A DNA stretch of 41,069 nt, taken from the IMG/VR virus record IMGVR_UViG_2541047748_000013; one strand, given 5' to 3'. The translations under genes and the position numbers were made by a program. Under the pieces are notes generated by a model. It did not search any database and was not told the origin of the DNA. It was given only the letters and a program-made list of their open reading frames with translations. The first letter of the stretch is position 1, and every line of letters begins with the position of its first letter. This document shows positions 3,369 to 35,008 of this stretch, piece after piece. The DNA is from a virus (lineage: Duplodnaviria > Heunggongvirae > Uroviricota > Caudoviricetes).

Positions 3369-3395
3369 CCCGCAAAATATTGCGGGCTTTTTTTT
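3369..3395 (+). terminator. Hairpin plus T8 run in plus orientation abutting the tailspike stop
   Basis: cccgcaaaatattgcggg followed by ctttttttt; no U-run in the minus orientation. Confidence 0.35.
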
Positions 3396-6300
3396 AACGT
3401 TCTTCCAGAGACTGAATCCGCTCTTTTATCTTATCCATTTCTCTGCGCTGCCATGCTGCCTCGATATAGAATAAGAGATCAGGTCTGACCCCCCATCTAG
3501 ATCCTGCTGGCGTTATTTCAACGCGCTCAATGATGTCTTCCATTACCATCACTGGATTATCATCCTCATCAACAATGATGCTCCCGTCATTATCAGTCAG
3601 CGGCATTTCCCTTTGGCCAGTAATGACGTCATCATATACTGCGGGATAATCGTCATAGCAAAGAAAGGCATAGCGGCATGTTGTGCTTTCTTCTTCCATG
3701 AGTCCGTGAGAAATAAGAACATCACGAAGTTGCTGCGCGATTACACCATGATGTATCCTCGCCCCTTCTTCCCCCTTTATAGCGACAGCGTTCAGCCATT
3801 TATAAGCGATATACCTGACGTCACCCCAGGCATCCAGCAATGCTTCGTCAGGAGAGACCGGCTCTGTCTTTAATGTTCCGTCACTGGTAACCACAGGATT
3901 GGAGCCAAGATAAACTGTCGAGAACCTGTTTCCCGGACCACCAAGAGCATTTACATTATCAAGATAAGGTTTAACATCTCCGTTCTCAAAAAGATGTTCG
4001 AGTGCGTTATATACCGCGCGACGTGGAGTACTGCTTCCGGAACCATGCAACGTTATCATTGCACCATCTGCTGAAGACGTTGTTTCACCGCCGCTAACGA
4101 TTAATCTCTGAGCGGTAACATCATCAGACGGTACTTTCTTCGCAATAATGGCGTAATTACCCTCAAGTTTGACTTCCGCGCGAACTTGTCCTGATGTACC
4201 TGCATGGACAGTCAGTGACTGGACGGCAACATCATCTGTGAAATCAACGGGTACAGGAACCGTCCTCACGCCTGACGTCGACATAAAAGTAGGAAGCGTT
4301 CTGTTAGGAGTGGCTCCGTAGACAAAATCCCTTGAAACAAATTCTTCCTGTTTAATTTTCACCCTGAAACAATACAAATCAGCCGGGTGACCATCGTGAA
4401 CATAAGGATATTTTCTGTTGTTATCCCCTATGCTCCATGGGTTTAGAAAGTCTTCCCCACCGAAAATGTAGTACAGCCAGTTGTCTTTGATACAAACTGA
4501 ACCAACACCAACCGCAGAGTTAACTATTCCGCCCTGATAAATCTGATCAGTAACATTAACCCACTCTACATTATCCAGACTCCACTCATTGACGTTAACT
4601 CTGGTCATAAATGTTCTTGGATAATTTCCTGCATAACGGTTATCAGGTTCTCCTCCTTCCCACTCACCAAATGCGCGCTCACTGCCAAAAATAATCAGCT
4701 CATCGCCAACTTTGGCAAAAGGAAGGTTTGAGTGATGAACATTATTTGGGAAGCGAAGAGAATTCCATGATGTACCTAAATCAGAGCTTCTGTGCAATGA
4801 ACTACCGGGTTGAGTACTTAATGTCCCCCTGGTCGTCAGATACAGAATGCCATCATAATATTTTACACATGGCTCAGATGCATTCGCCTCATATTCTACA
4901 GGTATGCGTCTGCGAACAAAGCTACCAGGAGAACCGAAAGCATCAGAGAAATAGAGTATCCCAAGCTCGCGTGGACCAATATCACCATTATGGTAGCCAA
5001 CAGCAAAACTGTTATCGCTAATCGTCGCAAAACTGTGAATCTCAGTAACAGGAGTGCTTCCGTCAACAAAAGAAGGAATAGTTCCAAGACTGGTTTTTCT
5101 CCATGGTGACGAGTGAAATGATGTACCAAAACTCCAGTATCTACCCTCGTTATTCTGATCCACATCCTGGGTATTTTGCGTCGTAACTGTAAAAGTATTT
5201 TTATCAATAACAGTAGTCACCGTCATATTCCCGGTAACACCTGTAACACCAGAGTTTGAGAAGTTGACAAAATCACCAGCAAATAATCCGTGATCAGTAA
5301 TGCGAATATAAGCGACTTGCTGATTTGCTGCTTTCGTTATACCACCATAAACGCGAAGGCTGCGACTCATTGGGCGATCCCACAACTCTGCAACCTGCAG
5401 TTTATTTCCGCTCACGGTCCGCGTCTCAATTACAGCAAAAAGGCGATTTCTGACAACCCCCATACTCATGCAGTGATAGTTAACTGTGGGATAGTTTTCA
5501 TGTAAATCTGTAAGCCATTCCGGCGTTGTCCAGGTCTTCCCGTCATCTCCTGAGCGAACCCATGCAACATGGAGGTTATTTACACCATGGCGGTCTCCAG
5601 CCATAAAAGGCGCATAGATGACATTGTCATATACAAACGTTTTATCCTGCGTCCAGGCGTTGTACCACGGTGTATCTGTAATTTTAAATAACTCTCCCTG
5701 GATAAAATCTTCAGAAGCATAAAAAAGAGGCTGGCCCGGTATTCTCTCAAATAAAAAACGAGCATTTTTAAATCGACTGACATCCGGAAGAGTTGATACT
5801 TTAAAAGTAAGCCCTAATCCGTCAATTTTATAACCTGGAGATGAGGCTTCAAGGCACGCGCTTATTGCAGTGGAATCGTCATTTATACCATCACCAACAG
5901 CTCCAAAATCTTTGGGGCTAATAGCATCACGCATTTTATCCTGGAACGTTCGGTACACAGCCCCAGAACCATACTGAATAAACCAACCAAAACCACCAAC
6001 AACCCCGGCGATTGCAGCATCGACATAATTACGCATTGAGCGATTATTTACAGCGTCCTGCTCAAATGATGGATCTGCAAGGTTAGAAATTTTGTTTTGC
6101 TTTGCATCGTAATATTTTGCAAGCAAAGATGGTTTCATCAATGCACGTCTGAACCACCCAAAACATTGCTGGATCAGCATCGTCAGGTAGTCAAAGGCAT
6201 CTTCATGCACTTCGGGGAAAAATTTTCCCTGATTGCGAAGGTCTGTCTCCTGCACTACATCAAGCACACGATCTATCGTAATTCGCCATCCAGTAGCAAG

Positions 6301-6513
6301 CGGAGACGGAAGAACCACAGAACCGCCACTATAAGTGCCCGCCCCAGTTACCGTATAACCGGTATCCAGAACCAATTCTGTTACGTTCCCGTTCAGGTCA
6401 GACACCTGAACAACCAGGTCTGATTTTCTGAAAATTCGAAAAGTATACGGAAACGATGTCGTAACGCCGTTACCGGTGTATTCGTTGTGGTCAACTTCGG
6501 TTGAGACCGTCAT
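3394..6513 (-). CDS. Tailspike/tail fiber: T7 gp17-like N-terminal adaptor, sialidase-like Asp-box beta-propeller, C-terminal S74-type intramolecular chaperone
   Basis: N-terminus resembles podovirus tail-fiber anchoring domain; Asp-boxes SGDDGKTW and SSDLGTSW; DFGAVGDGINDD motif; C-terminal SDGTLKT...HGVIAQQL region resembles autoproteolytic chaperone domain. Confidence 0.8.
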   Translation of the reverse strand: MTVSTEVDHNEYTGNGVTTSFPYTFRIFRKSDLVVQVSDLNGNVTELVLDTGYTVTGAGTYSGGSVVLPSPLATGWRITIDRVLDVVQETDLRNQGKFFPEVHEDAFDYLTMLIQQCFGWFRRALMKPSLLAKYYDAKQNKISNLADPSFEQDAVNNRSMRNYVDAAIAGVVGGFGWFIQYGSGAVYRTFQDKMRDAISPKDFGAVGDGINDDSTAISACLEASSPGYKIDGLGLTFKVSTLPDVSRFKNARFLFERIPGQPLFYASEDFIQGELFKITDTPWYNAWTQDKTFVYDNVIYAPFMAGDRHGVNNLHVAWVRSGDDGKTWTTPEWLTDLHENYPTVNYHCMSMGVVRNRLFAVIETRTVSGNKLQVAELWDRPMSRSLRVYGGITKAANQQVAYIRITDHGLFAGDFVNFSNSGVTGVTGNMTVTTVIDKNTFTVTTQNTQDVDQNNEGRYWSFGTSFHSSPWRKTSLGTIPSFVDGSTPVTEIHSFATISDNSFAVGYHNGDIGPRELGILYFSDAFGSPGSFVRRRIPVEYEANASEPCVKYYDGILYLTTRGTLSTQPGSSLHRSSDLGTSWNSLRFPNNVHHSNLPFAKVGDELIIFGSERAFGEWEGGEPDNRYAGNYPRTFMTRVNVNEWSLDNVEWVNVTDQIYQGGIVNSAVGVGSVCIKDNWLYYIFGGEDFLNPWSIGDNNRKYPYVHDGHPADLYCFRVKIKQEEFVSRDFVYGATPNRTLPTFMSTSGVRTVPVPVDFTDDVAVQSLTVHAGTSGQVRAEVKLEGNYAIIAKKVPSDDVTAQRLIVSGGETTSSADGAMITLHGSGSSTPRRAVYNALEHLFENGDVKPYLDNVNALGGPGNRFSTVYLGSNPVVTSDGTLKTEPVSPDEALLDAWGDVRYIAYKWLNAVAIKGEEGARIHHGVIAQQLRDVLISHGLMEEESTTCRYAFLCYDDYPAVYDDVITGQREMPLTDNDGSIIVDEDDNPVMVMEDIIERVEITPAGSRWGVRPDLLFYIEAAWQRREMDKIKERIQSLEER

Positions 6514-6617
6514 GTTAAATCTCCAGATAGTCGCAGCACCCGTTGCGCCGCATATCTGGTTATTCTATTACCTGAAAAACCACATATGGATAGAAAGACT
6601 GTAAATACGAATAGATA

Positions 6618-6632
6618 TTACCTTTCAGGTAA
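6618..6632. promoter_or_regulatory. TTACC-N5-GGTAA dyad (putative phage repressor operator) upstream of the antirepressor island
   Basis: Perfect dyad TTACCTTTCAGGTAA; identical copy at 25793-25807. Confidence 0.5.
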
Positions 6633-6671: not shown

Positions 6672-6687
6672 CTGTATAAATATACAG
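6672..6687. promoter_or_regulatory. LexA (SOS) box
   Basis: CTGTATAAATATACAG matches CTGT-N8-ACAG with AT-rich spacer; overlaps a TATAAAT -10-like element 22 nt upstream of the 6709 start codon. Confidence 0.7.
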
Positions 6688-6708: not shown

Positions 6709-6966
6709 ATGCAGCAGTATCACTATCCACTGGAAGACGGATTTACCGAAAGGATTCACACGCCGGGAGGCGTCAGGTCACTGGTGGAGGGATCGCACTT
6801 GATGAAATTACTCCGGGATCTCGATAAGGATGGATTTAATGTCGATGGCCCACTTGCCGAACTGACTGCACTGATTAACTACGTCACCAGCTCACAGATG
6901 TCTATGCAGGATCTGCAAACACATCTCGACTATTGTGCCGAACAATTACGAAAACAAACCAGATAA
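6709..6966 (+). CDS. Small protein homologous to the C-terminal domain of the downstream antirepressor
   Basis: 86 aa; GGAG RBS 8 nt upstream; aligns by eye with the Ant C-terminus (LMKLLRDLDKDGFNVDGPLAELT / LMNLLNQLQEDGHDVSGAAAELT; QDLQTHLDY / RDIQTHAEY). Confidence 0.6.
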   Translation: MQQYHYPLEDGFTERIHTPGGVRSLVEGSHLMKLLRDLDKDGFNVDGPLAELTALINYVTSSQMSMQDLQTHLDYCAEQLRKQTR

Positions 6967-6997
6967 GATTTGAAATTACCAATAGGAGTGCTTATAT

Positions 6998-7012
6998 TTA
7001 CCTTTGCGGTAA
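6998..7012. promoter_or_regulatory. TTACC-N5-GGTAA dyad inside a larger hairpin between the ant-like gene and ant
   Basis: TTACCTTTGCGGTAA flanked by inverted repeat AGGAGTGC...GCACTCCT. Confidence 0.45.
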
Positions 7013-7103
7013 ATTTACATCGCACTCCTCTTGTGCCATAGTAATCGGGCACTGGCAAAATCCAGTGCCGGGATTGGCGTCCCGGGTTACTAAGTGGCGC
7101 ATA

Positions 7104-7125
7104 CCACGCCAGACGTGGTTTTTTT
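7104..7125 (+). terminator. Intrinsic terminator upstream of ant
   Basis: CCACG ccaga CGTGG followed by T7 run. Confidence 0.55.
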
Positions 7126-7281
7126 ATGCGTTAAGCACAGCTATATCCGAATTATGGTGGGCTGGGCAGGGGTCCGAAAGGACGCCGGTACCACTTAGGC
7201 CGGTACGCCAACCTTGTCCAGTTCACCACCAGTAATTGGCGTTGCGGTGGTGATTAAAATCACTAAGTGGAGATAACCACC

Positions 7282-7992
7282 ATGGCTAATGCTCAAACTG
7301 CCATCTTCAAATTTGAATCTGTTAACCCTATCCGTTCCATCATTATCGATGGCCAACCATGGTTTGTAGCCCAAGACGTTTGTAGTGCGCTGCGTATCCA
7401 AAACGTCACCCAAGCACTTGAAAAACTGGATGATGATGAAAGGTCTATGTTCAACATAGGGCATGAACATCGTGCAATTTTTGACAGCCGAGTAAAAGAG
7501 ATCAACATTATCTCCGAGTCAGGCCTCTACACACTGATCCTCCGCTGCCGCGACGCAGTGACACCAGGCACTATCCCCTACCGCTTTCGTAAATGGGTTA
7601 CAGGTGAGGTTCTTCCTCAGATCCGCCGCACCGGAAGCTACATTAAAAACTCGCTCCCGCAGGAAGAACGCATAAAGATGGTTGCCGACCAGGTAGCCAA
7701 CGCCACAGCATCAGCAGTAATGCAGGCGATGAAGATAGAGAACAAAACCTACAGCGCCCCGCTGAAGCCCGGCTACCGCAGTTTGATTCACTCGCCGTCG
7801 GGTGTTCTCGGCCTGACGGAGAACTCACTGCTGATGAATTTGCTGAACCAGTTACAGGAAGACGGGCATGACGTATCGGGCGCGGCGGCGGAGCTGACCA
7901 CCATGTTCTGCTACATCGTCGGTGTGAGCAAATGCCTGCGTGATATCCAGACCCACGCGGAGTACATCAACGACAAGGCAGGGTTCTTCTGA
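7282..7992 (+). CDS. ant: Antirepressor, Bro-N/KilA-N N-terminal domain with Ant-type C-terminal domain
   Basis: Bro-N-like N-terminus (FVAQDVCSAL...SGLYTLILRCRD); GGAG RBS 9 nt upstream of ATG at 7282. Confidence 0.8.
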   Translation: MANAQTAIFKFESVNPIRSIIIDGQPWFVAQDVCSALRIQNVTQALEKLDDDERSMFNIGHEHRAIFDSRVKEINIISESGLYTLILRCRDAVTPGTIPYRFRKWVTGEVLPQIRRTGSYIKNSLPQEERIKMVADQVANATASAVMQAMKIENKTYSAPLKPGYRSLIHSPSGVLGLTENSLLMNLLNQLQEDGHDVSGAAAELTTMFCYIVGVSKCLRDIQTHAEYINDKAGFF

Positions 7993-17525: not shown

Positions 17526-19996
17526 CAGAATCCCCCAACAGTAAGGCGAGGAATAACGGCAAGAACAGACAGCGGCAACGGGTCAAGCTGACGGATTTTT
17601 ACACGTCCGTTTTTGCCCCAGTTACTGTCCAGTTTCACTTCTACTTTTCCGGTAGCGTCATCAACAGGATCATCGTAGAACTCGAATTCACGCTGTGGAT
17701 ATTCGTACCATTTACCGCCGGGCGTAGTCGCCCAGATGCCGCGACTGGCATTCACAACCAGAGTAACAGACGGGATCACCTGTTTTTTGTCCAGCAGCGT
17801 TTCCTGTCCGTTAATGTTGATATCCAGTGTTTCGAATTCAGCAGTTATTGGCAGGCCGATGTGCACTACAGCCCCCGGAGATTCCAGCGTGACGGCACCT
17901 CCGGAAACCACTTTCTGTGGTTCCACGTTCGCATCAGAGAGGATGTTTACGGTCTGGCCTTCAAGATGAGACAAGCCGCCAAATGTCCGGCGCGCCATCT
18001 GCCAGTTCGTGGTGGCCACATTCCTGAGGGATGGCGGGACGTTCCTGTTAGCACGAACCACTACAGCGGTATTGCTGGTTACAGAAATAATGTCGCAACG
18101 TAATTCTTTTGACACCTCATCGCCAGTATCAGGATCAGTTCCGGTATAAGGGAACTGTAGTTGCGCGCCGACATCACTACTGGTGAAGTACGCACCACCA
18201 GAAACACTGATTGTATATTCCGCGCGGTAATCCCATTCGCCAGAACCACCAGTGATGATCATCGTTCTGTCAGACGTATTTCTTCCATCATAGCTAAGGC
18301 CAGAATCAACAAAGAAAGCATCTTCATCGCTGGTAAATAAACGGCTGGACAGTCGCTCGATGTATCTCACTGTTTGCCCGTTAACGGTTCGGTTAATGAC
18401 GAAATACACCGCATCTTCATTGCCTTCGCTGATACTGCATGTGCTTTCATATTTTCCGGTACTGGACTGTGGTGCCCATGCAAAAACCTGTTGATCACGC
18501 AAATAGGTCATCACCAGTAATTTACCGTCATCACGAATGCAGAAGGCGCTGGAGTAAGGGACTATCGAGAAGCACCAGTCAACAATGCTGTGCTTCTGAA
18601 AAAGATGATTGGCAAGGATAGTAAGGTCGTTCCCCTGATAGCCGTCAACATCGAATGAGTAGGCCAGATCACGGACAACACTGCCTTTCTCCTGGACGAA
18701 CAGAGCAATATTCGCCACGGCAATTGGTGGGACATTGCTCGAGCCATTTGATCCCTGAGAGCTGAATGCAAATGATGATGGGGTAAGCACTTTGTTCTGG
18801 TCGCCAGTGATGACGTACTCACCTCCGGAAGTCAGCGCCACCAGCGAACCAACATCAATCAGGTGACGGATCTCATTAACCTGACGCCCGGCATAGGTGT
18901 AGATAATTCTGTCGTCATCCTGCGTAGGATTGCTTTTGCCAAAATCCTTATAATCCCCGGTACGGCTGGCCCAGATAGTCTGAGGAAACGCAGTCGATGC
19001 GGCGAAGTAAAGACGTTGTTGATAATAAACAACAGTGCCAGGATAACCATTAACACTGTTCCAGGCATATTTAGCCCATTTATAGCTGGCATTATCCTCG
19101 CCCACGACCTGCGAAGGGATATAGGAAATCACCTCGGCAGTTGCAGTAGTTCCATTTGCAGCAGTGATACGGGCAATGCCAAAACCACTGTGCAGATATT
19201 CCCACTCAATGCCAGTATCATCATCACCGGATCCGCCCCAGCCATCCCATGATGTGCCTTCTGTATGCGAAGGGCGCAAAGTACCTGTTTTGCCTGCTGT
19301 AACGGCGCGATAGTAGTTACTGTCTGCACGGCGAATATCGCCAATCGACGTACTCTTACTGGTTTCCCATACCGGCACAGAATCCACTGCAGGCTGTTCC
19401 AGATAGAACAATTTGCCTACCTGCTCCGCGCCAAAAATAGAGGCGCTTGCCGTTAGCGTAATTGTCCCGGTGCTGGCGCTGGCATAAACCGTCACTGACT
19501 CGTCAATATTGATATCTTCAAATGGCCCGTTCTTCGTTACCACATCAACCAGTTGCCAGTTGTCATGCGCATAGCGGCGCAACTCTTTCGGCGGGTATGC
19601 CGGATGAACCAGCGTAAGCACGTCTGCGCTTTGCGTGAATTTAATTCGGAACAGATCGGCTTCAGTATATGGCGTGGAAATTTCATAAATAACATTGCTG
19701 CTGTTCAGCACCAACGCACCATCTTTGATAACGCGCATGTACTGGTGTCCGAACTCCAGAGCATAAGTCTGAACCGTCGAGAACTGGAACGGGATCAGGC
19801 GGCATTTCCGATTTGGGTATTTGGCGGCACCGACAAAACGCGTACCAGGTCGATTCTCAACTCCGCCATACTGCCGCACGATAAAGTTATCGCACTTGCG
19901 CAATGCCACCTGGTACTTCGCCATGTCAATACGACCGTACAACGACGGTCCAATCTCACCACCGGCAAAGCTGGGCTGGATCCAACTGATAGCCAT
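17525..19996 (-). CDS. Tail tubular protein B-like (nozzle)
   Basis: 823 aa, follows a 201-aa tail tubular A-like gene; size and order as T7 gp11/gp12. Confidence 0.55.
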   Translation of the reverse strand: MAISWIQPSFAGGEIGPSLYGRIDMAKYQVALRKCDNFIVRQYGGVENRPGTRFVGAAKYPNRKCRLIPFQFSTVQTYALEFGHQYMRVIKDGALVLNSSNVIYEISTPYTEADLFRIKFTQSADVLTLVHPAYPPKELRRYAHDNWQLVDVVTKNGPFEDINIDESVTVYASASTGTITLTASASIFGAEQVGKLFYLEQPAVDSVPVWETSKSTSIGDIRRADSNYYRAVTAGKTGTLRPSHTEGTSWDGWGGSGDDDTGIEWEYLHSGFGIARITAANGTTATAEVISYIPSQVVGEDNASYKWAKYAWNSVNGYPGTVVYYQQRLYFAASTAFPQTIWASRTGDYKDFGKSNPTQDDDRIIYTYAGRQVNEIRHLIDVGSLVALTSGGEYVITGDQNKVLTPSSFAFSSQGSNGSSNVPPIAVANIALFVQEKGSVVRDLAYSFDVDGYQGNDLTILANHLFQKHSIVDWCFSIVPYSSAFCIRDDGKLLVMTYLRDQQVFAWAPQSSTGKYESTCSISEGNEDAVYFVINRTVNGQTVRYIERLSSRLFTSDEDAFFVDSGLSYDGRNTSDRTMIITGGSGEWDYRAEYTISVSGGAYFTSSDVGAQLQFPYTGTDPDTGDEVSKELRCDIISVTSNTAVVVRANRNVPPSLRNVATTNWQMARRTFGGLSHLEGQTVNILSDANVEPQKVVSGGAVTLESPGAVVHIGLPITAEFETLDININGQETLLDKKQVIPSVTLVVNASRGIWATTPGGKWYEYPQREFEFYDDPVDDATGKVEVKLDSNWGKNGRVKIRQLDPLPLSVLAVIPRLTVGGF

Positions 19997-26129: not shown

Positions 26130-26206
26130 GTGGCATTAGCTCAGTTGGACAGAGCAACCGCCTTCTAAGCGGTTGGTCGCAGGTTCGAATCCTGCATGCC
26201 ACGCCA
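26130..26206 (+). tRNA. tRNA-Arg (anticodon UCU)
   Basis: Manual cloverleaf: acceptor GTGGCAT/ATGCCAC, D-stem GCTC/GAGC, anticodon stem ACCGC/GCGGT with loop CTTCTAA, T-arm GCAGG-TTCGAAT-CCTGC, discriminator G, encoded CCA. Confidence 0.9.
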
Positions 26207-28338: not shown

Positions 28339-28931
28339 TGATTGCCATCCTGACGTTCTTTCAGTCTCTTCCTGGCTGCCGCTATGCGATCAGCAATTGT
28401 CACATTCACATTAACATCCAGGCGTTCTTTGAATGCGTTGACGTCGACGTGCTTACCAATCAGTTCGAGGTTCTTCACCTTGTCAGGCCATTTAATTTTT
28501 TTGAGGATTGTCTCTATCGAATCCTCGTTCATGTTCATGATGGTCGATGACAGATCAAAGCCACTAAGCGTAGTGCGCCAGATTTTCGGCCACTCGCGGA
28601 TTGGCTTAAGGCTCCCATCGTCGTTGAGGATGTCGATCACGTCCATCTGGTCGATCTCCACCAGGCGCATGAGAACGTAATCAGCACTGACGCGCATTCG
28701 TTTGTTGCGCTCCTCCATCAACTCGGCAATCCGTTTTTGAATGCGTTCATCGCGCATCATGACACTGGCTTTAACTGCCGCTGTATTTGGGGAGAATCCT
28801 GCGTTAATCGCTGCCTGAGTCTGGTTTTCAGGCGTTTTGATGTATGACTGGCAATAAGCCTCCTGCATTGCTGTTAGTGGCTTAAATTGCGTTGATTTGC
28901 GTTTATAGGCTTTAGGTTCAGCAGGCATCAT
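28335..28931 (-). CDS. Terminase small subunit
   Basis: About 198 aa from internal Met pair (MMPAEP); immediately upstream of large subunit; listed ORF start at 29009 judged too far upstream. Confidence 0.7.
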   Translation of the reverse strand: MMPAEPKAYKRKSTQFKPLTAMQEAYCQSYIKTPENQTQAAINAGFSPNTAAVKASVMMRDERIQKRIAELMEERNKRMRVSADYVLMRLVEIDQMDVIDILNDDGSLKPIREWPKIWRTTLSGFDLSSTIMNMNEDSIETILKKIKWPDKVKNLELIGKHVDVNAFKERLDVNVNVTIADRIAAARKRLKERQDGNQ

Positions 28932-28948
28932 AACCACCGTGGTAATAG

Positions 28949-28963
28949 TTACCGTTGTGGTAA
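28949..28963. promoter_or_regulatory. TTACC-N5-GGTAA dyad cluster just upstream of the terminase small subunit start
   Basis: TTACCGTTGTGGTAA flanked by GGTAATAGTTACC and GGTAATAGTACC. Confidence 0.45.
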
Positions 28964-31689: not shown

Positions 31690-31704
31690 TTACCTCTGAG
31701 GTAA
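31690..31704. promoter_or_regulatory. TTACC-N5-GGTAA dyad overlapping the Shine-Dalgarno of the DUF1064-like gene
   Basis: TTACCTCTGAGGTAA 4 nt from the start codon; the GAGG of the right arm is the only RBS-like element. Confidence 0.5.
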
Positions 31705-32580: not shown

Positions 32581-33400
32581 CCCACACCCCTTCTATCCAG
32601 TCAGTGTTATTCCAGTCAAGCTCATCGCTTTTCCCGGCATTTTTTGATTTTCCCCTGATATGATTTACGTGCCTGGCGAATTTTTGTTCCCACTGAACCT
32701 GCGTGAACACTTTGCCCTCAGCCATCCAGTAATCCCGGAATGCAGCAAGTTCAGCAGGTGTAAATTCCGGTTCCGGCAGGGCCGTTCCCCACAGCGCAGC
32801 ACGCCGCCGAAAATCTGGCGACGGTAGCCAGCCATCTGTCATCGGAAATTTCCCGATGGGTTCACTCAGGCCATCCAGAAATTCAGGTTCTGCCACCTGC
32901 AACGGCGTACTGTTCGCTTCACTGGTCGGAGCACCCTCGCACACGTGCGCTATGTGTGGGGTTTTATATATATCTTCCTCTTCCTCTTCCTCTGGTAACT
33001 CCTTTTGTAACGCTGTTGGCGTTACTTTTTGCGTTACTCGTTTTCGATGCTCTGCCACTCTTCTATTCGTAAGTGCACGTTTTTTCGATGATTCTCCATT
33101 ATGTCGCTCAAAGTTTGGAAGAATTAGTTTGCCGTCATGATAAGCAAGCCATCCGACGCTAATGAGGGCGTCAGCAAATCCTGTAATAAAAGCGAGTCTA
33201 TCAAGTACTCCTTTTGTAACGCTGCCAGCGTTACCGTCTATTGTTTGCTGGTCAGCCCATGCCCATATACGAACCAGCTTTCCAAGAACAGCATCTGGAT
33301 CAATACCCAGAATTTCTGCTATCTGAAAAATTTCAGGTTTATCAGGAGTGATAACTTCAACCTTAATCCAGCTGCTTGCCATAGGTTTCCCCTCTTGCAC
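32552..33400 (-). CDS. Replication initiator / replisome organizer (lambda O analogue)
   Basis: N-terminal replisome-organizer-like domain, poly-Glu linker, C-terminal DnaT-like region; iterons inside the coding sequence. Confidence 0.7.
   Translation of the reverse strand: MQEGKPMASSWIKVEVITPDKPEIFQIAEILGIDPDAVLGKLVRIWAWADQQTIDGNAGSVTKGVLDRLAFITGFADALISVGWLAYHDGKLILPNFERHNGESSKKRALTNRRVAEHRKRVTQKVTPTALQKELPEEEEEEDIYKTPHIAHVCEGAPTSEANSTPLQVAEPEFLDGLSEPIGKFPMTDGWLPSPDFRRRAALWGTALPEPEFTPAELAAFRDYWMAEGKVFTQVQWEQKFARHVNHIRGKSKNAGKSDELDWNNTDWIEGVWDEINSRTSQ
32960..33234. repeat. Putative replication origin: paired 19-bp palindromic iterons plus AT-rich tract inside the O-like gene
   Basis: GTAACGCTGTTGGCGTTAC (33007-33025) and GTAACGCTGCCAGCGTTAC (33216-33234), both preceded by CTCCTTTT; extra GCGTTAC at 33031; AT-rich GTTTTATATATATC near 32961. 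Confidence 0.5.
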
Positions 33401-33575
33401 TCTTTAGTGCACAAGCAAATTCATTACGATGGCGGTTGGCGCTATTCATTGCACATTCAACACATGTTCCGTTCAGAACATACCTTTCAGAGAGATGGCC
33501 GTGACGGCACCGCTTTCCTGTGAAATAGCGATTTAACCCGGCTTTTGCGGCCTCCATTCTGGTTACTATCTTCAA
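33363..33575 (-). CDS. Small Cys/His-rich protein in the cII position
   Basis: 64-70 aa, CRHGH...CVEC cluster; overlaps O-like start; weak RBS; low support. Confidence 0.3.
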   Translation of the reverse strand: MKIVTRMEAAKAGLNRYFTGKRCRHGHLSERYVLNGTCVECAMNSANRHRNEFACALKSARGETYGKQLD

Positions 33576-33653
33576 TTTTTCCGCCCCTTTTTGTTATTGA
33601 TATTGGCTATTTTGCACAATTGGAAAATTTGATCAACCAGATTTGGTTTTTTA

Positions 33654-33668
33654 TTACCTTTGAGGTAC
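33654..33668. promoter_or_regulatory. TTACC-N5-GGTAC dyad between cro-like and downstream genes
   Basis: TTACCTTTGAGGTAC, imperfect right arm. Confidence 0.4.
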
Positions 33669-33670
33669 GA

Positions 33671-33701
33671 ATAGATATGAAAAGACCGCCGGGTGGCGGT
33701 C
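33671..33701 (-). terminator. Weak intrinsic terminator after the cro-like gene (tR1-like position)
   Basis: GACCGCC-ACCC-GGCGGTC hairpin followed by TTTTCAT on the minus strand. Confidence 0.3.
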
Positions 33702-33723
33702 TACAGAGGGTTGTAGCTGGATA

Positions 33724-33954
33724 TCATGAGTAGAAGAAGTATGCCAGTTCTGCTTTTGAGCGCAGCCATTGTCTTGTTTTACAGGCTTTAAAAAGCCCAT
33801 TCATCAATACCTTACCTGGCATTTTGCGCTTACCTGTTAAGTGAGTCTGGATATAGTGACTCGTCGTTCCGGCTTCCTGTGCGAAGGCTTCACGCTCATC
33901 CGGAGTAAGTGCAAGCCAGTGCTTTTTGAAATCGAAATGTCCGTTATCGCTCAT
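33724..33954 (-). CDS. Cro-like HTH regulator
   Basis: 76 aa; HTH-like segment (FAQEAGTTSHYIQTHLTGKRKMP); divergent from the repressor gene across an operator-rich 154-bp region. Confidence 0.6.
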   Translation of the reverse strand: MSDNGHFDFKKHWLALTPDEREAFAQEAGTTSHYIQTHLTGKRKMPGKVLMNGLFKACKTRQWLRSKAELAYFFYS

Positions 33955-33990
33955 AGCTATTGCCTGATATTTATTTCAGATAATAAATAT

Positions 33991-34053
33991 TCACCCATAA
34001 GGTAACAAAAATCAAGGATAGTTACCTATGGGGTGCATTTACCTGTTGGGTAA
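33991..34053. promoter_or_regulatory. Tripartite operator in the divergent repressor/cro promoter region
   Basis: Three dyads: TCACCCATAAGGTAA (33991-34005), TTACCTATGGGGTGC (34022-34036), TTACCTGTTGGGTAA (34039-34053). Confidence 0.55.
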
Positions 34054-34108
34054 TATTGCTTTAAATTGAATCATCTACTGATTCATATATGAGGCGATTT
34101 CCCAGAAA

Positions 34109-34693
34109 ATGAAAAGTATCCAGGACGTCCGCAGGCAAAATCTCAACGACTTGATCGACCGTGAATTCAATGGTGTTCAGACGCGGATGGCTGAAAAACT
34201 TGGAACTCAGGCAAATCTGGTAAACCGCTGGGCTCTTGGCAAGAAGGTTATCGGCGACCAGGTTGCACGAAAAATTGAAGCTGCCGCCAATAAACCCCGT
34301 AACTGGCTTGATATTGATCGCTCGCTTTCTCAGGAGGGTTTTCAGCCTGTCGGCCCGAGCGATATAGGTCAGCTGGCGGCTCACAACCTGGAACGCTGGA
34401 TGAGCGAAAGCCGCGACCTTTCAACGCAGGGAAAACTACACCGCGCATCCGGCGTCGCCCAGGTGACAATCAGCCGCCTGTTAAACAATGAGGTCAGCGT
34501 TTCCATTTCCACCCTGGAGAATGTTGCATCCGCATTCGGGCGTCACGGCTATGAATTACTGATTCACCCGCACGACCCTGCGACCATCAACTATGATCGC
34601 TCGCGCTACGCATTGTTACCCGAAACCGAGAAAGCAAAGATCGAAAGTTACATTGAATTTGTCATCAACCAGAACGAAAAAAACAAACAATAA
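34109..34693 (+). CDS. CI-type repressor with tandem HTH domains and no S24 peptidase domain
   Basis: 194 aa; two XRE-like HTH segments; no Ala-Gly/Ser-Lys autocleavage domain visible; short leader. Confidence 0.6.
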   Translation: MKSIQDVRRQNLNDLIDREFNGVQTRMAEKLGTQANLVNRWALGKKVIGDQVARKIEAAANKPRNWLDIDRSLSQEGFQPVGPSDIGQLAAHNLERWMSESRDLSTQGKLHRASGVAQVTISRLLNNEVSVSISTLENVASAFGRHGYELLIHPHDPATINYDRSRYALLPETEKAKIESYIEFVINQNEKNKQ

Positions 34694-34715
34694 AATCATA
34701 TTTTTCAGTAAGTAA

Positions 34716-34738
34716 GCCGCCTTCTGGCGGCTTTTTTA
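34716..34738 (+). terminator. Intrinsic terminator after the repressor gene
   Basis: GCCGCC ttct GGCGGC followed by T6. Confidence 0.6.
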
Positions 34739-34750
34739 TTGCCTATACGA

Positions 34751-34765
34751 TTACCTAACGGGTAA
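34751..34765. promoter_or_regulatory. TTACC-N5-GGTAA dyad upstream of early-left promoter
   Basis: TTACCTAACGGGTAA. Confidence 0.5.
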
Positions 34766-34784
34766 TTTTTTTAACTCATATCTA

Positions 34785-34812
34785 TTGACATCAAACCAGA
34801 TACGCATAATCA
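34785..34812 (+). promoter_or_regulatory. Putative early-left (PL-like) promoter
   Basis: TTGACA at 34785-34790, CATAAT-like -10 around 34805-34812, bracketed by two operator dyads. Confidence 0.45.
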
Positions 34813-34827
34813 TTACCTCAACGGTAA
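34813..34827. promoter_or_regulatory. TTACC-N5-GGTAA dyad just downstream of the PL-like -10
   Basis: TTACCTCAACGGTAA. Confidence 0.5.
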
Positions 34828-34846
34828 CAGACCGAGGTAACAAGTT

Positions 34847-35008
34847 ATGCAGTGGAAAATCATCAACGGTTGGTACTGCGTTACTGCATGCGGATTCATG
34901 AGCTGGAAGTTCCGCACCTTACAGGAAGGCATTAAGTGGGCTTTCGTCAGCAAAGAAGCTCGCGATGTGGCAAACGATAACGAGATATGGGAGGAGGTTA
35001 GCAAATGA
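34847..35008 (+). CDS. Small Trp-rich protein, first gene of early-left operon
   Basis: 53-codon ORF not in supplied track; GAGGT RBS 7 nt upstream; stop overlaps next start (ATGA). Confidence 0.4.
   Translation: MQWKIINGWYCVTACGFMSWKFRTLQEGIKWAFVSKEARDVANDNEIWEEVSK

Follow-up and report, generated by a model that had tools for sequence, protein, structure and literature searches.

How is lysogeny maintained, and how is it released, in a temperate phage whose repressor seems to lack a self-cleaving domain? This question is raised by positions 33654-34846 of a 41,069-nucleotide stretch of viral DNA (the window, by which we mean the whole stretch analysed). We are highly confident that this segment is the lysis-lysogeny switch of a phiV10/epsilon15-type podophage, with a Rep/Ant pair of the SPC32H type. 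The window itself is assigned to Uetakevirus as a phiV10/epsilon15-like E. coli podophage, and the region is 96.5-98.7% identical to E. coli Uetakevirus records that include phiV10, vB_EcoP_ZX5, TL-2011b and HEMP4. A preliminary description of the locus had named a repressor, OR-like sites, a gene in the position of cro, a terminator and a PL-like promoter, and all of these are found where it had placed them. That reading of an immunity region is correct but ordinary, because a switch of this type has already been described, and its structure solved, in close relatives. The discovery value is accordingly small: GenBank already lists the Rep sequence as the phiV10/ZX5 repressor, work on SPC32H has solved the mechanism, and epsilon15 carries an annotation of the operator consensus. 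What is gained in practice is a correct annotation of the window, with its immunity region and with a LexA-controlled Ant as the trigger of induction. Our genome-wide map of 13-14 operator sites applies to phiV10-type E. coli phages, and the annotation should be of use in engineering phiV10-like reporter or therapeutic phages and in predicting the SOS inducibility of such prophages. Sequence features with their statistics and conservation, the homology of Rep and Ant, the absence of an S24 domain and the LexA box were computed here, while the function of the repressor (from overexpression in ZX5) and the domain roles, tetramer and action of Ant (from SPC32H) are taken from the literature on homologues.

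Rep and its domains

Rep is a protein of 194 residues encoded on the plus strand at 34109-34693, and is predicted to consist of an N-terminal HTH DNA-binding domain, an HTH_3-like middle domain and a C-terminal domain for oligomerisation and Ant binding. Its identity is 100% to phiV10 p40 and ZX5 ORF21, 78% to its counterpart in Tyrion, and 42% to those of epsilon15 and SPC32H. Overexpression of ORF21 in ZX5 abolished free phage and cut the endolysin and holin transcripts by >99.9% (PMC9782041). A phmmer search against the PDB aligned residues 1-190 of Rep with residues 2-197 of 5D50_A, an entry named "Repressor" (E 4e-42), and residues 89-190 with 5D4Z, which covers SPC32H Rep 92-198 (E 4e-20); the same two entries, 5D50 and 5D4Z, were the top matches when an AF2 model of Rep was searched with Foldseek.

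Secondary accounts of SPC32H identify 5D4Z as SPC32H Rep and give the domain order as a DNA-binding domain (DBD), a dimerisation domain (MDD) and a tetramerisation/Ant-binding domain (PMC9986798). The crystallised fragment 92-198 is described as a tetramer (PMC9986798, PMC9638917), and in the second of these accounts the repressor binds DNA as a tetramer that is disassembled by tetrameric Ant (PMC9638917). According to these secondary accounts, only the N-terminal HTH of SPC32H Rep is a DNA-binding domain, and the second HTH-like module dimerises. By homology, the Rep of the window would likewise have a middle dimerisation domain and a C-terminal tetramerisation/Ant-binding domain.

This bears on the earlier label of Rep as a "tandem-HTH" repressor. 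Two HTH-like modules are indeed present according to Pfam, but a DNA-binding role for the second was overstated, since the corresponding module is the dimerisation domain in SPC32H Rep. Could Rep nevertheless be a true tandem binder, in which both modules of one chain touch DNA, one per half-site? Pfam finds two HTH_3 stretches, the stronger of which is the second module (residues 106-147), besides a YdaS/HTH match at residues 21-61, and the AF2 model is all-helical, with two separate bundles on a flexible linker and the helices of the N-terminal domain at residues 4-59. These features would suit such a binder, but the operators described below are dyads with the symmetry that two identical DNA-binding domains would call for, and in the published accounts what follows the DBD of SPC32H Rep is given over to dimerisation, tetramerisation and Ant binding, the 92-198 fragment being tetrameric (PMC9986798, PMC9638917). 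Moreover, the N-terminal domain is the best kept part of Rep across phages with a common operator (52% against 32-45% elsewhere, with the NLVNRW motif retained), which fits an operator common to these phages. We therefore regard binding by both modules as improbable. The preferred reading is that the N-terminal HTH domain of Rep binds 15-17-bp dyads of the form (A)TTACC-N5-GGTAA(T), whereas the second HTH-like module, together with the C-terminal segment, would form dimers and tetramers without contacting DNA.

Operators and promoters around rep

The open reading frames confirm a divergent region of 154 bp (33955-34108) between rep on the plus strand and the cro-position gene on the minus strand. 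Dyads in this gap were scored by their mismatches to TTACC-N5-GGTAA. The dyad nearest cro, TCACCCATAAGGTAA at 33991-34005 (TCACC...GGTAA), has one mismatch, and all five phages compared share its TCACC imperfection. The middle dyad, TTACCTATGGGGTGC at 34022-34036 (TTACC...GGTGC), has two mismatches and a degenerate right half; it is exact at the corresponding position, 17 bp from the next dyad, in epsilon15, SPC32H and BUCT711. The dyad nearest rep, TTACCTGTTGGGTAA at 34039-34053, is exact. These sites had been reported as three overlapping dyads at 33991-34053, and of this the three OR-like dyads and their positions hold, but there is no overlap: counted as 17-mers, the second dyad adjoins the third, and the first is at a distance of 31 bp from the second. 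Shuffled sequence contains 11.3 sites with at most two mismatches per 41 kb, so that three dyads within 154 bp have a Poisson P of about 1e-5. All three are kept in position in Tyrion, epsilon15, SPC32H and BUCT711, and the spacings in the five phages are 17 plus 30/31. Another candidate with two mismatches, inside the cro-position gene at 33830-33844, was set aside as it is not kept as a dyad in the five-phage alignment.

There are two candidates for the rightward early promoter (PR), both predicted on the minus strand. One combines a -35 element TTGATT at 34015-34010, invariant in the five phages, with a -10 element AATATT at 33991-33986; the other, TTGTTA-17-TATTAT at 34008-33980, was found by a promoter scan. 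Both are imperfect, and any choice between them is one that we infer. The block AAAAATCAA (which reads TTGATTTTT on the minus strand) at the candidate PR is invariant in the five-phage alignment. The OR dyad nearest cro would cover the spacer and -10 of PR, and the other two would lie upstream of it, over the region where rep transcription must begin. No consensus promoter on the plus strand passed the scan within 33955-34108, where weak candidates for a rep promoter can be picked out by eye.

The cro-position gene is an open reading frame for 76 residues at 33724-33954 on the minus strand. It encodes a small HTH protein homologous to phiV10 p41 and epsilon15 gp39 (76% identity to the latter, with an invariant AGTTSHYIQ.HLT segment), and it is followed by an intrinsic terminator at 33683-33702 on the minus strand, with an 8-bp stem of which 6 pairs are GC, that is annotated in phiV10. 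The protein matches phrog_35, "transcriptional repressor" (E 5.6e-13). A Pfam search found no family and a PDB sequence search no match for it; its AF2 model is a 5-helix bundle (pLDDT 87), whose best PDB folds are the YdaS-N, 434 and P22 c2 DNA-binding domains, weak matches with E of about 0.5 and a TM score of 0.64. Its gene has the position of the first gene of the rightward early transcript, and the protein may act as Cro and bind OR. Just past its terminator, at the very start of the region (33654-33668), there is an operator-like dyad, TTACCTTTGAGGTAC, with one mismatch. Its counterparts in Tyrion (35365, there too 337 bp from the OR site) and BUCT711 (6032) also have one mismatch, and its ATTACC is invariant in the five-phage alignment.

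On the other side of rep, the strong terminator that had been described is present as an 8-bp stem at 34714-34733, 6 of its pairs being GC, with a T run behind it, the whole spanning 34714-34740 on the plus strand; it is annotated in phiV10, and Rfam, searched permissively over 33500-35000, yielded no matches other than sub-threshold ones to this hairpin. Beyond it, the predicted PL-like promoter, TTGACA-17-AATCAT at 34785-34813 on the plus strand (10/12 matches in the scan, the -10 AATCAT being imperfect), is bracketed by two exact dyads, in agreement with the preliminary description. The distal one (34751-34765) is upstream of the -35, and the proximal one (34813-34827) overlaps the -10 and +1. 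We rejected CATAAT as the -10 element because its spacer from TTGACA is only 14 nt, and the scan favours AATCAT at 17 nt. A supposed third PL dyad at about 34826-34840 was also rejected, being a GGTAA half alone that is the Shine-Dalgarno of the next gene. This gene, the first of the leftward early operon, encodes 53 residues (34847-35008, plus strand; phrog_898, function not annotated), and downstream of it are genes for a 344-aa protein, a 101-aa protein, a YqaJ exonuclease and RecT. The dyad-flanked promoter would thus be the leftward early promoter and is predicted to drive this recombination operon, one dyad lying upstream of its -35 and the other, 62 bp away, over its -10/+1. The 62-bp pairing of the 34751 and 34813 dyads is kept in 5/5 phages. 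As a separate observation, the 62-63 bp spacing is invariant although the repressors have diverged to 42% identity.

Operator dyads across the genome

The dyad also occurs outside the immunity region. Exact TTACC-N5-GGTAA is present 10 times in the window against 0.03 expected, a count reached by none of 100 shuffles, and the dyad marks about nine loci genome-wide (near 6.6, 7.0, 8.1, 25.8, 28.9, 31.7, 33.65, 34.0 and 34.8 kb) at positions that are kept in Tyrion, epsilon15, SPC32H and BUCT711. About seven of these loci are further to OR and PL: the site just past the cro terminator; a 62-bp pair ahead of a DUF1064 gene that itself lies downstream of the replication genes; two dyads that adjoin the start codon of the small terminase; and sites in front of the portal operon, between tailspike and ant, over the promoter of another antirepressor, of Bro type, and in front of a gene of unassigned function. 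With the same dyad at so many loci, one Rep probably silences most of the prophage directly.

Epsilon15 provides an independent view of these sites. Its repressor, gp38, is 42% identical to Rep and its dyad consensus is the same; its genome has 15 sites with at most one mismatch against 0.63 expected, of which seven are annotated as "protein_bind: repressor" in the GenBank record (AY150271.2). The annotated "repressor / lysogeny" sites are at PL, before the junction-resolvase gene, at the terminase, before the portal operon and between tailspike and ant, and these loci correspond to those of the window; three OR dyads found by our scan (33341, 33358 and 33388) are left unannotated in that record. 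The operator string ATTACCWDWWNGGTAAT is what we take to be the consensus; it was not found in a literature search, and the motif is borne out by the GenBank features of epsilon15. That Rep binds these dyads is suggested by their position, statistics and conservation together with the epsilon15 annotation.

Might the dyads instead be mainly the sites of the 76-residue cro-position protein or of another phage regulator, with Rep recognising something else? That protein is better conserved than Rep (identity to epsilon15 of 76% against 42%), its putative recognition helix is invariant in parallel with the conservation of the dyads, and an enriched motif, ATVTGGTT, stands beside several of them. 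However, dyads lie over the -10/+1 of promoters that are necessarily silent in a lysogen (PL and that of the Bro-type antirepressor) and adjoin ant, and the curators of epsilon15 label them as repressor sites. An operator common to repressor and Cro is normal, so binding by Cro would not exclude binding by Rep. We consider this explanation slightly less probable still than DNA contact by both HTH modules, and retain Rep as the likely ligand of the dyads. The enrichment of ATVTGGTT itself amounts to 15 copies against 4.2 expected.

The operator pairs that flank the promoter region at PL and before the DUF1064/resolvase gene are exactly 62 bp apart, about six helical turns, and this spacing is invariant (62-63 bp) in five phages. 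One conjecture, which we offer tentatively and think rather unlikely to be right, is that Rep tetramers clamp promoters, a single tetramer bridging both dyads of a 62-bp pair and wrapping the promoter in a micro-loop, and that, given the further dyads at the terminase, portal, tailspike/ant and Bro-type antirepressor loci, nearly every transcription unit is silenced directly. If true, a single repressor would silence nearly all transcription units directly, with no lambda-style cascade. An experimental demonstration of promoter clamping by Rep was not found in the literature as far as it was checked; the 62-bp pairs offer a simple, testable hypothesis on how a tetrameric repressor engages promoters.

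Antirepressor and induction

Elsewhere in the window, at 6709-6966 on the plus strand, is a gene for a small antirepressor, Ant, of 85 residues, which matches PDB 5D50_E, "Anti-repressor protein" (E 4e-47), and is 86% identical to SPC32H Ant. It is preceded by a LexA box, CTGTATAAATATACAG, at 6672-6687 on the plus strand (the 20-mer matches 18/20 consensus positions). A putative Rep operator lies at 6618-6632 between the divergent tailspike and ant genes, and its epsilon15 counterpart (19895-19911) is annotated as a repressor-binding site. The distance between LexA box and operator is 54-55 nt in the window, epsilon15, SPC32H and Tyrion, that is, in four of five phages, BUCT711 being the exception. 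A consensus scan passed no promoter for ant. In SPC32N, a point mutation of the LexA box reportedly leads to clear plaques or constitutive induction. The genome that encodes Rep thus also appears to encode its cognate Ant under LexA control, which would explain the missing protease.

An alternative for induction is a repressor of the lambda CI/LexA type, with a cryptic self-cleaving S24 domain in its C-terminal part and induced directly by RecA. All that speaks for it is the lambda-like gene order, in which rep diverges from cro, three dyads are present, and a PL-like promoter comes after a terminator. Pfam found no S24 domain in Rep even at E up to 1, none of 86 homologues (all of about 194 aa) has one, the alignment of Rep residues 1-190 with a solved non-protease repressor leaves no such domain over its full length, and the all-helical AF2 model matches no S24 fold in Foldseek. 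The earlier statement that the repressor has no protease domain therefore stands up to sensitive searches, and the encoding of a dedicated, LexA-controlled Ant also counts against self-cleavage, so that this alternative is refuted at the level of sequence and structure. The architecture had been called distinct from LexA-like CI, and it is; it is not novel, however, belonging to a known class that is inactivated by a LexA-controlled antirepressor, here encoded in the window. Since Rep lacks an S24 protease, induction would not proceed by RecA-stimulated self-cleavage. Under the Rep/Ant reading, DNA damage would cause LexA to leave the near-consensus box before ant, and Ant would then bind Rep and strip it from DNA. 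It is barely credible that Rep is instead a toxin-antitoxin-type HTH antitoxin ("VapI antidote" or YdaS-like) and no phage repressor: one phage record does use the name "plasmid maintenance system antidote protein VapI" for the identical protein, and Pfam gives a weak YdaS_toxin match (21 bits, cut-off 30), but no toxin gene adjoins rep, which stands where a complete temperate phage has its repressor gene and whose product is homologous to a solved Rep, and the claim is contradicted by the repression of lytic genes on overexpression of the identical ZX5 protein (PMC9782041).

The closest known systems include the SPC32H Rep/Ant pair (PDB 5D50, 5D4Z). The genus, the gene order and the three-part Rep (E 4e-42 over its full length) are alike, as are Ant (86% identity), the LexA box 54-55 nt from a Rep dyad before ant, and the dyads at corresponding loci and spacings. 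The two differ in Rep (42% identity overall, 52% in the DNA-binding domain), in the middle OR dyad, exact there and degenerate in the window, and at PL, where SPC32H has a third dyad, 76 bp further along, that the window lacks; the window for its part has the second, Bro-type antirepressor module as an extra. Studies of the SPC32H switch were reportedly published by Kim and Ryu in 2013 and by Kim et al. in 2016. With phiV10 p40 and ZX5 ORF21 the protein is 100% and the region 98% identical at the DNA level, and the immunity region is essentially without difference, but operators are not defined in the papers and records of these phages. The ZX5 paper takes the Bro-type ORF4 as the antirepressor (PMC9782041).

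The likeness to lambda CI/Cro lies in divergent repressor and cro genes flanking three operators, and in a repressor gene that points in the same direction as an operator-bearing leftward early promoter of recombination genes, with a terminator between the two. Unlike lambda CI, Rep has no S24 domain and would not undergo RecA-mediated cleavage, induction relying on an antirepressor; Rep would form tetramers through a different domain; the operators reach late and structural loci; and among the OR dyads the perfect one adjoins the repressor gene and does not lie over PR. Gifsy-1, Gifsy-3, Fels-2, coliphage 186 (Tum) and N15 (AntC) have a LexA-repressed gene for a small protein that inactivates a non-cleavable repressor. 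The logic is the same, but the Ant and Rep folds are not known to be related to these. LexA-controlled antirepressors are said to have been described by Lemire et al. in 2011. Between the window and SPC32H, Ant is 86% conserved and its partner Rep only 42%, which is unexpected for a coevolving pair.

Layout of the immunity region and its repressor

The immunity region of the window is a member of the Rep-Ant system of SPC32H, epsilon15 and phiV10, with the binding of the repressor (Rep) to its dyads being putative on the sequence comparisons made here. That system is already known, and all of its defining features that are testable in silico are found in the window. The immunity region given in the preliminary description at 33654-34846 is confirmed. 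ORF calls place the gene of the 194-aa Rep at 34109-34693 (+) and a divergent 76-aa ORF in the cro position at 33724-33954 (-), leaving the 154-bp gap that had been proposed between them. Our pattern search of the window for TTACC-N5-GGTAA finds three dyads in this operator region (OR), one nearest cro with one mismatch (33991-34005), a middle one with two (34022-34036) and an exact one nearest rep (34039-34053); with the site frequency of shuffled sequence as background, finding three in 154 bp has P ~1e-5. While these had been described as three overlapping dyads at 33991-34053, the overlap is absent: the second and third abut as 17-mers, and the first stands 31 bp from the second. The strong terminator expected after rep is an 8-bp hairpin with six GC pairs followed by a T run (34714-34740, +), and a matching one lies 3' of the 76-aa gene (33702-33683, -). 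The PL-like promoter between two dyads was also recovered, as TTGACA-17-AATCAT (34785-34813), the best sigma-70 match of the region with 10 of 12 positions, with exact dyads upstream of its -35 (34751-34765) and over its -10/+1 (34813-34827). CATAAT, though more conspicuous, was rejected as the PL -10 because it leaves a spacer of only 14 nt to the -35. A dyad with one mismatch lies just beyond the cro terminator at 33654, and no rep promoter passed our consensus scan. The layout resembles that of lambda: the repressor and cro genes diverge around a tripartite OR, and past a terminator comes PL, which has operators and recombination genes of its own.

In the OR alignment of the five phages compared (the window, epsilon15, SPC32H, Tyrion and BUCT711), the half-sites are invariant and the dyad centers variable. 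The block AAAAATCAA is invariant as well and reads TTGATTTTT on the cro strand, which we infer to be the candidate -35 of PR, in a choice between two PR candidates; the cro-proximal dyad would then fall in the PR spacer and -10. Searches with the 76-aa protein gave no Pfam family and no PDB match by sequence, but a match to phrog_35 “transcriptional repressor” (E 5.6e-13). With epsilon15 gp39 it shares 76% identity, including an AGTTSHYIQ.HLT segment that is invariant. Its AlphaFold model is a five-helix bundle (pLDDT 87) whose nearest folds, all weak (E ~0.5, TM 0.64, probability 0.94), are YdaS-N and the DNA-binding domains of 434 and P22 c2. “Cro-like” is a reasonable term for this putative regulator, by position and fold class. 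Beyond the cro terminator and its dyad is a 70-aa gene (33363-33575, -; phrog_1081, a homologue of epsilon15 gp40), situated where lambda has cII, whose product has a Cys/His-rich stretch (CRHGH...CVEC) resembling a zinc ribbon.

The two HTH modules and the missing protease domain of Rep hold as a description of its sequence. Pfam reports two HTH_3 stretches, of which the one at residues 106-147 is the stronger, and additionally a YdaS-like HTH at residues 21-61. A cryptic S24 domain was found neither by Pfam at E up to 1 nor among 86 database homologues, each about 194 aa, and Foldseek returned no protease-like fold for the Rep model. In the AlphaFold model (pLDDT 74), residues 4-59 and 85-151 each form a helical bundle, the linker between them (71-84) is disordered, and residues 172-193 form a C-terminal helix; the top Foldseek matches of this model are 5D50 (“Rep-Ant complex from Salmonella-temperate phage”) and 5D4Z. 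By sequence, residues 1-190 align to 5D50 chain A “Repressor” (E 4e-42) and residues 89-190 to 5D4Z (E 4e-20), the latter being SPC32H Rep (PMC9986798). In that protein, an N-terminal DNA-binding domain is followed by a middle dimerization domain and a C-terminal tetramerization domain that also binds the antirepressor (PMC9986798), so that of the “tandem HTH” two HTH-like modules stand in sequence, but the second corresponds to an oligomerization domain. The lack of the S24 feature that defines CI/LexA-type repressors does set Rep apart from them, but its class is already known from SPC32H. On DNA, SPC32H Rep is a tetramer, and each palindrome is read by a pair of DNA-binding domains drawn from different dimers (PMC9638917). 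The DNA-binding domain is the best-conserved part of Rep (52% versus 32-45% elsewhere), which would be consistent with an operator common to these phages.

Putative operators across the genome

The putative operator is genome-wide in the window. Exact copies of TTACC-N5-GGTAA number 10 against 0.03 expected, a count that no shuffle reached, and there are three further sites with one mismatch in addition to the two-mismatch OR site. Outside the immunity region, dyads are found as a pair (31690, 31752) before a DUF1064 gene, itself after a lambda-P-like replication gene; as a pair (28931, 28949) directly next to the start codon of the small terminase; upstream of the portal operon (25793); between the tailspike gene and the antirepressor gene ant (6618); over the -10 of a TTGAAA-17-TATATT promoter (6998-7012); and before a gene without assigned function (8078). 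Some dyads overlap translation signals instead of promoters: the small-terminase pair (28931-28963) is flanked by a terminator hairpin and the ATG, and dyad 31690-31704 contains the GAGG Shine-Dalgarno of the DUF1064 gene. Epsilon15 has 15 sites with up to one mismatch (0.63 expected), seven of which are annotated in its GenBank record (AY150271.2) as “protein_bind: repressor, lysogeny”. The same pattern detects OR dyads at 33341, 33358 and 33388 in the epsilon15 gp38-gp39 gap (33341-33402), for which that record has no annotation.

The site loci are common to all five phages, as are the spacings in OR (17 + 30/31 bp), at PL (62-63 bp) and before the DUF1064/resolvase gene (62 bp); the 337 bp from OR to the post-cro site are common to the window and Tyrion only. 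The pairs 34751/34813 and 31690/31752 in the window, and 32555/32617 and 35907/35969 in epsilon15, are exactly 62 bp apart, with equivalents in SPC32H, Tyrion and BUCT711 (63 bp in one case). Such pairs bracket a promoter region at two loci in 5/5 Uetakevirus genomes, despite repressors down to 42% identity. This invariant pairing around promoters is the least-explored aspect of the system, and it suggests that a single Rep tetramer could possibly bridge the two operators in phase.

A second motif, ATVTGGTT, occurs 15 times in the window (4.2 expected; 0/100 shuffles reach 15), with copies at 6554, 6578, 6957, 25741, 31710, 33635 and 34794, among others. Seven of them fall in presumed promoter spacers, no more than ~60 bp from a Rep dyad. 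The motif might belong to a promoter element specific to the phage, or a second regulator might bind there.

Antirepressors and induction

Outside the region first described, an 85-aa gene, ant (6709-6966, +), codes for a protein that matches chain E of PDB 5D50, “Anti-repressor protein” (E 4e-47). The LexA box CTGTATAAATATACAG (6672-6687, +) stands 22 nt upstream of the ant start codon, and the 20-mer containing it matches the LexA consensus at 18/20 positions. The Rep dyad at 6618 lies 54 nt farther upstream, and this box-to-dyad arrangement (55 nt) is also seen in epsilon15, SPC32H and Tyrion. Work on SPC32H by Kim and Ryu in 2013 reportedly found that LexA represses ant, that SOS releases it, and that Ant inactivates the non-cleavable Rep. 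By the same logic, LexA would repress ant in the window, SOS would release it, and Ant would inactivate a Rep that is not cleaved. Secondary accounts agree on the Rep-Ant part of the SPC32H logic (PMC9638917, PMC9986798), with tetrameric Ant splitting the Rep tetramer (PMC9638917). Between the window and SPC32H, Ant is 86% identical, whereas Rep is 42% and its C-terminal Ant-binding segment 45% identical. This would be unexpected for coevolving partners, and hints at possible cross-induction between heterologous prophages.

Downstream of ant, the TTGAAA-17-TATATT promoter (6970-6998) precedes three elements: an Rfam isrK match (7049-7125, 67.7 bits) with a terminator at its end (7103-7125), a C4 antisense RNA (7150-7233, 66 bits, Rfam) and a 236-aa Bro-N protein (7282-7992). 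Over its C-terminal ~74 residues, this protein shares 42% identity with the small Ant (E 9e-16). Judged by these matches, 6970-7992 looks like a second antirepressor module, a P1/P7 immI-type c4-ant unit put under Rep control.

Relatives of the phage

E. coli Uetakevirus records (phiV10, vB_EcoP_ZX5, HEMP4, TL-2011b and others) share 96.5-98.7% identity with the region, and the Enterobacter phages Tyrion and BUCT554 share 77%; all come from this genus of epsilon15-like podophages. Rep itself is 100% identical to phiV10 p40 (“putative transcriptional repressor, two HTH motifs”) and ZX5 ORF21, 78% to the Tyrion repressor, 45% to that of Klebsiella phage BUCT711, and 42% to both epsilon15 gp38 and SPC32H Rep. 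Overexpression of ZX5 ORF21 led to loss of free phage, with endolysin and holin transcripts down by >99.9% (PMC9782041). The tailspike (3394-6513, -) is a complete endosialidase, with End_N_terminal, End_beta_propel (E 4e-233), End_tail_spike and a Peptidase_S74 chaperone, which points to a phiV10-like phage probably specific to the K1 capsule, not O157. Between the promoter region of the portal operon and the gene for the large terminase is a tRNA-Arg(TCT) gene (26130-26206, +), and a tRNA-Arg is annotated at the corresponding place in SPC32H.
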